From: Escherichia coli
GTDB lineage: Bacteria; Pseudomonadota; Gammaproteobacteria; Enterobacterales; Enterobacteriaceae
Direction: 5' to 3' (one strand)
DNA length: 64,000 bases
Assembly (NCBI RefSeq): GCF_003790525.1
Contig: NZ_CP033635.1
A model generated the notes under the pieces. It saw nothing but the letters and a program-made list of their open reading frames with translations, ran no database searches and was not told where the DNA came from. Both the position numbers and the translations under genes were made by a program. Shown here one piece after another: positions 26,223-28,562 of this stretch; position 1 is the stretch's first letter; the number at the start of each line of letters is the position of its first letter.

Positions 26223-26738
26223 ATGTTGAAACAGATAATCTGGATTCTGTTCTTACTGGGATTAACGGGGGGCTGTGAGCTATTTGCCCATGATGGCACG
26301 GTCAACATTAGCGGATCGTTTCGCCGTAATACATGCGTGCTGGCACAGGATAGCAAGCAAATCAATGTGCAGTTAGGCGACGTCTCGCTGACACGTTTTT
26401 CTCATGGGAATTATGGCCCGGAGAAATCGTTCATCATTAATTTGCAGGATTGCGGAACAGATGTCAGCACGGTTGACGTCACCTTTTCAGGAACCCCCGA
26501 CGGAGTACAGAGCGAAATGCTGTCCATTGAAAGTGGTACGGATGCAGCCAGTGGGCTGGCAATTGCAATTCTGGATGATGCGAAGATATTGATTCCGCTT
26601 AACCAGGCGAGTAAAGACTACAGCCTACATAGCGGTAAGGTGCCATTAACTTTTTACGCGCAATTGCGACCTGTCAATAGCGATGTGCAGTCGGGTAAAG
26701 TGAATGCCAGCGCGACATTTGTACTTCATTATGACTAA
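26223..26738 (+). CDS. ycbV: Fimbrial-like minor subunit YcbV, 171 aa
   Basis: Pilin-like; RBS aggag precedes the ATG at 26223; the ORF-track extension is rejected. Confidence 0.87.
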   Translation: MLKQIIWILFLLGLTGGCELFAHDGTVNISGSFRRNTCVLAQDSKQINVQLGDVSLTRFSHGNYGPEKSFIINLQDCGTDVSTVDVTFSGTPDGVQSEMLSIESGTDAASGLAIAILDDAKILIPLNQASKDYSLHSGKVPLTFYAQLRPVNSDVQSGKVNASATFVLHYD

Positions 26739-27441
26739 TACGTGGAACAGATTGGCGCTCTTGATTTTCGCCGTTTTATCGCTGCTGGTGGCGAGTGAAT
26801 TGCAGGCAGGAGTGGTGGTCGGCGGAACGCGATTTATCTTTCCGGCAGACAGAGATTCGATATCTATTTTATTGACTAATACCAGTCAGGAATCCTGGCT
26901 TATTAACAGTAAAATCAATCGCCCAACGCGTTGGGCTGGGGGTGAAGCGTCGACAGTACCAGCACCATTACTGGCCGCTCCGCCACTTATTCTCCTGAAG
27001 CCCGGTACTACAGGCACATTGCGCTTGCTGAGAACGGAAAGCGACATCTTGCCCGTGGATCGCGAAACGCTATTTGAGTTAAGCATTGCCAGCGTGCCAT
27101 CCGGCAAAGTTGAAAATCAGAGCGTAAAAGTGGCGATGCGCTCGGTATTTAAACTGTTCTGGCGACCCGAAGGTTTGCCGGGCGACCCGCTGGAAGCTTA
27201 TCAACAATTACGCTGGACACGGAATTCGCAGGGTGTACAACTCACTAACCCAACGCCTTACTACATTAACCTGATTCAGGTGAGCGTAAATGGTAAAGCG
27301 TTAAGTAATGCGGGAGTTGTGCCACCTAAAAGCCAGCGTCAGACAAGCTGGTGTCAGGCTATAACACCGTGTCATGTCTCCTGGCGGACGATAAATGATT
27401 ACGGCGGGTTGAGTGCAAAGAAGGAGCAAAATCTGCCCTGA
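26731..27441 (+). CDS. ycbF: Second periplasmic pilus chaperone YcbF, 236 aa
   Basis: PapD-like chaperone; start overlaps the ycbV stop. Confidence 0.87.
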   Translation: MTNTWNRLALLIFAVLSLLVASELQAGVVVGGTRFIFPADRDSISILLTNTSQESWLINSKINRPTRWAGGEASTVPAPLLAAPPLILLKPGTTGTLRLLRTESDILPVDRETLFELSIASVPSGKVENQSVKVAMRSVFKLFWRPEGLPGDPLEAYQQLRWTRNSQGVQLTNPTPYYINLIQVSVNGKALSNAGVVPPKSQRQTSWCQAITPCHVSWRTINDYGGLSAKKEQNLP

Positions 27442-27451
27442 AACAGGCTCG

Positions 27452-27465
27452 GAAAACGTTTGCGC
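27452..27465 (+). promoter_or_regulatory. Candidate PurR operator upstream of pyrD
   Basis: gaaaacgtttgcgc matches the palindromic PurR box core (GCAAACGTTTTC); pyrD is a known PurR regulon member. Confidence 0.5.
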
Positions 27466-27551
27466 TTTTTTTGCCACAGGTCAATTCCCTTTTGGTCCGA
27501 ACTCGCACATAATACGCCCCCGGTTTGCACACCGGGAATCCAGGAGAGTTC

Positions 27552-28562
27552 ATGTACTACCCCTTCGTTCGTAAAGCCCTTTTCCAGCTCGATCCAGAGC
27601 GCGCTCATGAGTTTACTTTTCAGCAATTACGCCGTATTACCGGAACGCCGTTTGAAGCACTGGTGCGGCAGAAAGTGCCTGCGAAACCTGTTAACTGCAT
27701 GGGCCTGACGTTTAAAAATCCGCTTGGTCTGGCAGCCGGTCTTGATAAAGACGGGGAGTGCATTGACGCGTTAGGCGCGATGGGTTTTGGATCTATCGAG
27801 ATCGGTACCGTCACGCCACGTCCACAGCCAGGTAATGACAAGCCGCGTCTCTTTCGTCTGGTAGATGCCGAAGGTTTGATCAACCGTATGGGCTTTAATA
27901 ATCTTGGCGTTGATAACCTCGTAGAGAACGTAAAAAAAGCCCATTATGATGGCGTCCTGGGTATTAACATCGGCAAAAATAAAGATACGCCGGTGGAGCA
28001 GGGTAAAGATGACTATCTGATTTGTATGGAAAAAATCTATGCTTATGCGGGATATATCGCCATCAATATTTCATCGCCGAATACCCCAGGACTACGCACA
28101 CTGCAATATGGCGAAGCGCTGGATGATCTCTTAACCGCGATTAAAAATAAGCAAAATGATTTGCAAGCGATGCACCATAAATATGTGCCGATCGCAGTGA
28201 AGATCGCGCCGGATCTTTCTGAAGAAGAATTGATCCAGGTTGCCGATAGTTTAGTTCGCCATAATATTGATGGCGTTATTGCAACCAATACCACGCTCGA
28301 TCGTTCTCTGGTTCAGGGAATGAAAAATTGTGATCAAACCGGTGGCTTAAGTGGTCGTCCGCTTCAGTTAAAAAGCACAGAAATTATTCGCCGCTTGTCA
28401 CAGGAATTAAACGGTCGCTTACCGATCATCGGTGTTGGCGGCATTGACTCGGTTATCGCTGCGCGTGAAAAGATTGCTGCGGGGGCCTCACTGGTGCAAA
28501 TTTATTCTGGTTTTATTTTTAAAGGTCCGCCGCTGATTAAAGAAATCGTTACCCATATCTAA
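27552..28562 (+). CDS. pyrD: Dihydroorotate dehydrogenase (quinone), 336 aa
   Basis: Matches PyrD from [21 protein letters not shown]; class 2 DHODH. Confidence 0.95.

Follow-up and report, generated by a model that had tools for sequence, protein, structure and literature searches.

The intergenic segment between ycbF and pyrD in our Escherichia coli sequence contains an imperfect 16-bp palindrome, CGGAAAACGTTTGCGC, at positions 27450–27465, which is almost certainly the PurR operator (PUR box) of the pyrD promoter. All positions refer to the window, that is, the whole stretch of 64,000 nucleotides that was analyzed. The pyrD PUR box is an already known operator, and the evidence laid out below shows it to be real, conserved and ordinary. 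Its detection confirms a textbook link between two pathways, in which purine sufficiency, acting through PurR, trims pyrimidine synthesis at pyrD.

Location of the PUR box

The 14-mer gaaaacgtttgcgc, which occupies 27452–27465 exactly, is the inner 14 nt of the box and is followed directly on its 3' side by seven T (27466–27472). Around the box, the window reads ...cctgaaacaggctcGGAAAACGTTTGCGCtttttttgccacagg..., with the central CpG of the palindrome at 27457–27458. The reverse complement of 27452–27463, GCAAACGTTTTC, is the sole exact match to GCAAACGTTTNC in the window. Upstream, a ycbF-like open reading frame of 245 aa ends in a TGA stop at 27439–27441, and gaaaacgtttgcgc begins 11 nt past the last base of that stop (10 nt in between); downstream, the pyrD ATG at 27552 (MYYPFVRKA...) lies 87 nt past the last base of gaaaacgtttgcgc (86 nt in between). 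Both distances, 11 nt and 87 nt, agree with the original prediction. A 401-nt query spanning the site (27300–27700) has a match in 5425 of the 5426 complete E. coli genomes and is 100% identical to several chromosomes (IAI39, SMS-3-5, CE10 and others), and the features that RefSeq annotates under these identical matches are ycbF, a fimbrial chaperone gene, and pyrD, which encodes the quinone-dependent dihydroorotate dehydrogenase (Table 1).

Table 1. Features of the pyrD control region and its neighbors, in window coordinates.
Feature	Position	Strand	Basis
PUR box, PurR operator of pyrD, CGGAAAACGTTTGCGC	27450..27465	.	Sequence, K-12 site, matrix score, conservation
pyrD CDS, quinone-dependent dihydroorotate dehydrogenase; regulated gene	27552..28562	+	ORF, RefSeq annotation
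ycbF, fimbrial chaperone, last gene of the elf/ycb cluster; neighbor, outside the regulatory unit	26704..27441	+	ORF, RefSeq annotation
T-run and conserved block TTTTTTGCCnCAGGTCAATTCCCTTT, upstream/-35 part of the pyrD promoter	27466..27492	+	Per-column conservation in genera without ycbF
-10 hexamer CATAAT of the pyrD promoter	27508..27513	+	Conservation; ATAAT invariant across genera
Probable start cluster CCCG	27519..27522	+	PMC6524683 and sequence
Leader hairpin CCCGGU...ACCGGG, only in C-started transcripts	27519..27536	+	Fold; invariant across genera
Rfam PyrD_leader (RF02373) match	27484..27557	+	97.9 bits against a gathering threshold of 47, E = 9e-18, full-length

Motif score

The window was scanned on both strands with a log-odds matrix derived from the 27 ChIP sites that have a motif in Table 1 of Cho et al. 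once pyrD is left out. With this 27-site matrix, the sequence at 27450–27465 scores 18.9 bits and is the best match in the window by 8 bits, the next best reaching 10.9 bits. Leave-one-out scores of the 27 real PurR sites extend from 7.5 to 25.0 bits with a median near 19, and the pyrD box falls in the middle of this range. The exact tail probability at 18.9 bits is 2.6e-7 per position, which corresponds to 0.03 expected matches per 64 kb on both strands and to ~2.4 per whole E. coli genome; the score was reached in 5 of 100 first-order Markov simulations of the 64-kb window. The original prediction had staked itself on a PurR motif scan in which the site would not fall below the genomic background, and the box is both the top match of the window and above the background of the surrounding genome.

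Plain consensus searches proved too crude for the pyrD box, which is why a weight matrix was needed. No match to the perfect 16-mer palindrome ACGCAAACGTTTGCGT with at most three mismatches was found in the window, the pyrD box itself having four, and a 12-mer search allowing one mismatch returned three matches against 2.3 expected in the window, which is not above chance. The box nonetheless conforms to the PUR box pattern ACGNAAACGTTTGCNT with its central CpG, and CGGAAAACGTTTGCGC fits 12 of the 16 positions of the perfect palindrome.

The second-best match to the PurR matrix, TGGGTAACGATTTCTT, lies on the minus strand at 28540–28555, within the 3' end of pyrD. Its 10.9 bits are at chance level, being below the mean simulated maximum of 15.6 bits (s.d. 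2.1), and mid-scoring PurR-like sites are fewer in the real window than in the Markov simulations.

The corresponding site in E. coli K-12

PurR binding has been mapped by ChIP-chip in K-12 MG1655 (Cho et al. 2011, PMC3159470). Table 1 of that study lists a PurR region at pyrD that was seen only with adenine, with the motif CGGAAAACGTTTGCGT; its signal is among the weaker ones (log2 ratio of 1.01), and pyrD is in the list of genes affected by deletion of purR, its mRNA level thus being purR-dependent. Direct repression of pyrD by PurR is described there as 'experimentally determined', with reference to Choi & Zalkin 1990, Wilson & Turnbough 1990 and others. According to a review (PMC6245113), PurR represses pyrC and pyrD far more weakly than it does the pur genes. 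The proposal that the palindrome is a PurR operator serving pyrD was therefore right, and the K-12 site had been published in Cho et al. 2011 (PMC3159470).

Alignment of K-12 (NC_000913.3) to the window places the same site in the same place, with three single-nucleotide differences in 171 aligned bases. The K-12 PUR box occupies the same locus and the same position relative to pyrD and is identical to that of the window at 15 of 16 bases, the sole difference in the box being T in K-12 and C in the window at position 16; between box and ATG, one further substitution (27476) is found and the rest is identical. The ChIP sites of purHD, carAB, ygfT and yjcD likewise have C at position 16 (Table 1 of Cho et al.). 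The K-12 allele (T16) scores 21.1 bits versus 19.0 bits for the window allele (C16), a cost of ~2 bits for the T-to-C change, and the window haplotype is carried by ~450 of the 5426 complete E. coli genomes. Published PurR binding concerns the K-12 allele, and the C16 allele of the window is a predicted site.

Conservation of the box upstream of pyrD

One representative genome per species was scanned with a pattern for the start of pyrD, ATGTAYTAYCCNYTNGTNCGNAARGC, that excludes the box; at 116 of the loci obtained, 200 nt or more of sequence preceded pyrD, and in these a box was called at a threshold of 12.9 bits. A box at or above this threshold is present in 104–105 of the 116 enterobacterial species; it begins 99–113 nt before the ATG with an orientation that never differs, and the pyrD box is thus kept at the orthologous position in related genomes. 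By comparison, the threshold was not reached in any of 316 control segments, each 200 nt long and drawn from these loci, either within pyrD or farther upstream.

In the 105 box-bearing sequences, the information content rises abruptly at the box, from 0.47 bits per column upstream of it to 1.5 within it; because these sequences were chosen for the box core, conservation at positions 6–14 is inflated in this profile, a bias from which the start-codon scan is free. High conservation continues downstream through the T-run, the block GCCnCAGGTCAATTCCCTTT, the -10 element ATAAT, the CCCCGG start region, the leader hairpin and the Shine-Dalgarno sequence. Given that conservation begins so abruptly, we take the box to mark where the conserved pyrD control region begins on its 5' side. 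The variable positions within the box (4, 10, 15 and 16) are those that are weakly specified in the known motif, ACGNAAACG(T/A)TTGCNT.

No PUR box was found upstream of pyrD in 11 of the 116 species, most of them Erwinia-, Pantoea- or Tenebrionibacter-like (loci L008, L015, L035, L061, L065, L066, L071, L076, L089, L094 and L104). Two other Erwiniaceae loci (L045 and L058) do have it. This distribution points to PurR control of pyrD having been lost or gained in particular lineages.

Enterobacteriaceae form two classes by the spacing between the box center and the -10 element ATAAT. Escherichia, Salmonella, Citrobacter and Kluyvera have a spacing of 50–51 nt (51 in the window), and Enterobacter, Klebsiella, Raoultella, Kosakonia and others one of 60–61 nt. 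The classes differ by an indel of 9–11 nt directly 3' of the box (27465/27466 in the window), which is about one helical turn; in Escherichia, the box directly abuts the conserved T-tract. That the two classes are one helical turn apart suggests that repression from upstream of the -35 region may be dependent on the helix face.

The box and T-run belong to pyrD

A YcbF-like gene lies within 1.5 kb upstream of pyrD in only 2 of 120 loci, both from Pseudocitrobacter, and is absent from the other 118. The ycbF junction is likewise absent from ~1350 of the 5426 complete E. coli genomes, or about a quarter. In these genomes, ssuE adjoins pyrD, as in E. coli UPEC132 (L122, 2440–2608), and the box AAGAAAACGTTTGCTA is followed by TTTATTGCC; the same box, AAGAAAACGTTTGCTA, is also found in E. 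albertii (L003). The T-run is kept within the conserved block where no fimbrial operon exists. Because a ycbF-like gene is upstream in so few loci and because elf-less E. coli keep the box, we assign the box and the T-run to pyrD. Homology of UPEC132 with the window begins at 27452, which puts the elf/ycb insertion/deletion junction at the left end of the box.

The box of the elf-less haplotype, AAGAAAACGTTTGCTA, scores 13.8 bits versus 19.0 for the window and 21.1 for K-12. PurR control of pyrD might vary naturally, in strength between elf-containing and elf-less haplotypes and in geometry through spacing and helix-face dependence, a proposal that we consider possible but rather unlikely. The difference between the haplotypes and the two spacing classes are the points that go beyond the literature found, and both are minor.

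Outside Escherichia, only the Pseudocitrobacter loci (L016 and L029) have a gene for a YcbF-like chaperone (~59% amino acid identity) immediately before pyrD. The box and T-run in them, TGAAAACGTTTGCGTTTTTTTTG, are similar to those of elf-containing E. coli, a hint at a common history of the fimbrial cluster and the box variant next to it.

Promoter and leader downstream of the box

A sigma-70 promoter scan of 27000–27800 found no consensus-like promoter. The scan gave no -35 element, and the spacing between box and start is derived from the conserved CATAAT and from the start sites described in a review (PMC6524683). According to that review, a high CTP/GTP ratio makes pyrC and pyrD transcripts start at a C 6–7 nt past the Pribnow box, and a low ratio makes them start at a G further downstream; a hairpin hides the ribosome-binding site only in the longer transcripts. 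Given CATAAT at its position in the window, the C starts would be at 27519–27520 and the G start at 27522. In the predicted folds, RNA beginning at 27519 forms a 6-bp hairpin (-10.7 kcal/mol) and RNA beginning at 27522 forms essentially none (-3.5 kcal/mol). With a start near 27520, the PUR box would be centered near -62 (about -70 to -55), upstream of the -35 region, and the T-run would lie at about -54 to -48, a position like that of an UP element and not that of a terminator tail.

The PyrD_leader covariance model scores well above its gathering threshold here, with the PUR box outside the model. The sole other match in the Rfam scan, SNORA57 (13.9 bits, E = 0.72), is noise. A divergent promoter built on TTGACC (the reverse complement of GGTCAA) was considered by eye and rejected, there being no -10 element at the right spacing. 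The block TTTTTTGCCnCAGGTCAATTCCCTTT (27467–27492) is highly conserved across genera and has no good -35 hexamer 16–18 nt from CATAAT; it could act like an UP element, form an unusual -35 region or bind another factor.

Alternative readings of the palindrome

Three other accounts of the site were weighed. In the first, PurR would act at the box not only as an operator-bound repressor but also as a roadblock that stops elf read-through elongation from entering pyrD, in the way known for PurR at purB (PMC3159470, PMC6245113). The terminator scan of the plus strand from the ycbF stop to pyrD (27442–27551) detected no intrinsic terminator, and with no terminator-like structure in this interval, elf/ycb transcripts, if made, could enter pyrD, as this account supposes. 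Nothing directly supports a roadblock against such read-through, however, and it cannot explain the conservation of the box, which, being present in species and strains that have no elf genes, either predates the elf junction or is independent of it. The elf/ycb operon is, moreover, reported to be silent under laboratory conditions. We therefore consider this additional role improbable.

In the second, the palindrome and the seven T would together serve as an intrinsic terminator for the elf/ycb fimbrial operon; the original prediction had suggested that the site may also act in the 3' region of this operon, where the seven T follow it. The site is suitably placed, 11 nt past the ycbF stop with the T-run next to it, and the plus strand offers no other terminator-like site between ycbF and pyrD. 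The palindrome, however, is A/T-rich and centered on CG and so yields no stable stem; no stable G+C-rich hairpin precedes the T-run at 27442–27480. Besides the silent terminator scan, the predicted fold of 27425–27480 (-10.5 kcal/mol) is no better than that of shuffled sequences (mean of -11.95 kcal/mol, z = +0.52), with the T-run consumed in pairing. Box and T-run are also conserved without ycbF, at 118 of 120 loci as well as in elf-less E. coli. On the strength of the scan, the fold and this conservation, we reject an intrinsic terminator of the elf operon as very improbable, and the suggested action of the site in the 3' region of the operon is not supported.

A functionless chance palindrome, for which the chance-level results of the loose consensus searches and the 18.9 bits attained in those few Markov simulations might be cited, is refuted by occupancy of the K-12 allele in vivo (ChIP, PMC3159470) and by conservation of the box at a fixed position beside unalignable DNA in 104–105 of the 116 species, with no counterpart in the control segments, and can be set aside with near certainty.

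Proposed mechanism

Taking the box as the PurR operator of pyrD, we propose that, when purines are plentiful, the PurR dimer with its corepressor (hypoxanthine or guanine) would bind the imperfect 16-bp palindrome. Bound PurR would modestly lower the initiation of pyrD transcription, which would tie pyrimidine synthesis to purine supply. The mode of repression is uncertain, because most PurR sites overlap the promoter (Cho et al. 2011, PMC3159470; PMC6245113) and the pyrD box apparently does not. The most likely route would be hindrance of the contacts that the RNA polymerase alpha C-terminal domain makes at the T-tract, or DNA bending. PurR control would add to the main control of pyrD, which consists of the CTP/GTP-sensitive choice of start site and the translation-limiting leader hairpin. 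In genome annotation, the site merits the label pyrD PUR box, and an elf terminator should not be marked at the T-run.

Comparison with known systems

The operator of cvpA-purF-ubiX, the reference PurR site, has the sequence AAGAAAACGTTTGCGT and is identical to CGGAAAACGTTTGCGC at 13 of 16 positions. Asymmetric half-sites and the central CpG are common to the purF operator and the pyrD box. PurR sites at pur promoters generally overlap the promoter and mediate strong repression (PMC3159470, PMC6245113), whereas the repression linked to the pyrD box, which is placed upstream of the -35 region, is weak.

A parallel in placement is the PUR box of carAB P1 (Devroede et al. 2004), as far as it is described in PMC6245113. 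Like the pyrD box, it serves a promoter of the pyrimidine pathway from a position upstream of the core promoter; in that account it confers only few-fold repression, and it carries C at position 16, as does the pyrD box of the window. It differs in lying much further upstream (-128.5) and in acting together with other proteins bound in that control region (IHF, PepA and others), nothing comparable being known or seen at pyrD.

The PyrD_leader (RF02373), with the start-site switching of pyrC and pyrD, is an adjacent element of the same control region and is complete in the window. It represents a separate mechanism, made up of an NTP-sensitive start choice and a translational hairpin, and the PUR box stands beside it, 19 nt upstream of the start of the model.
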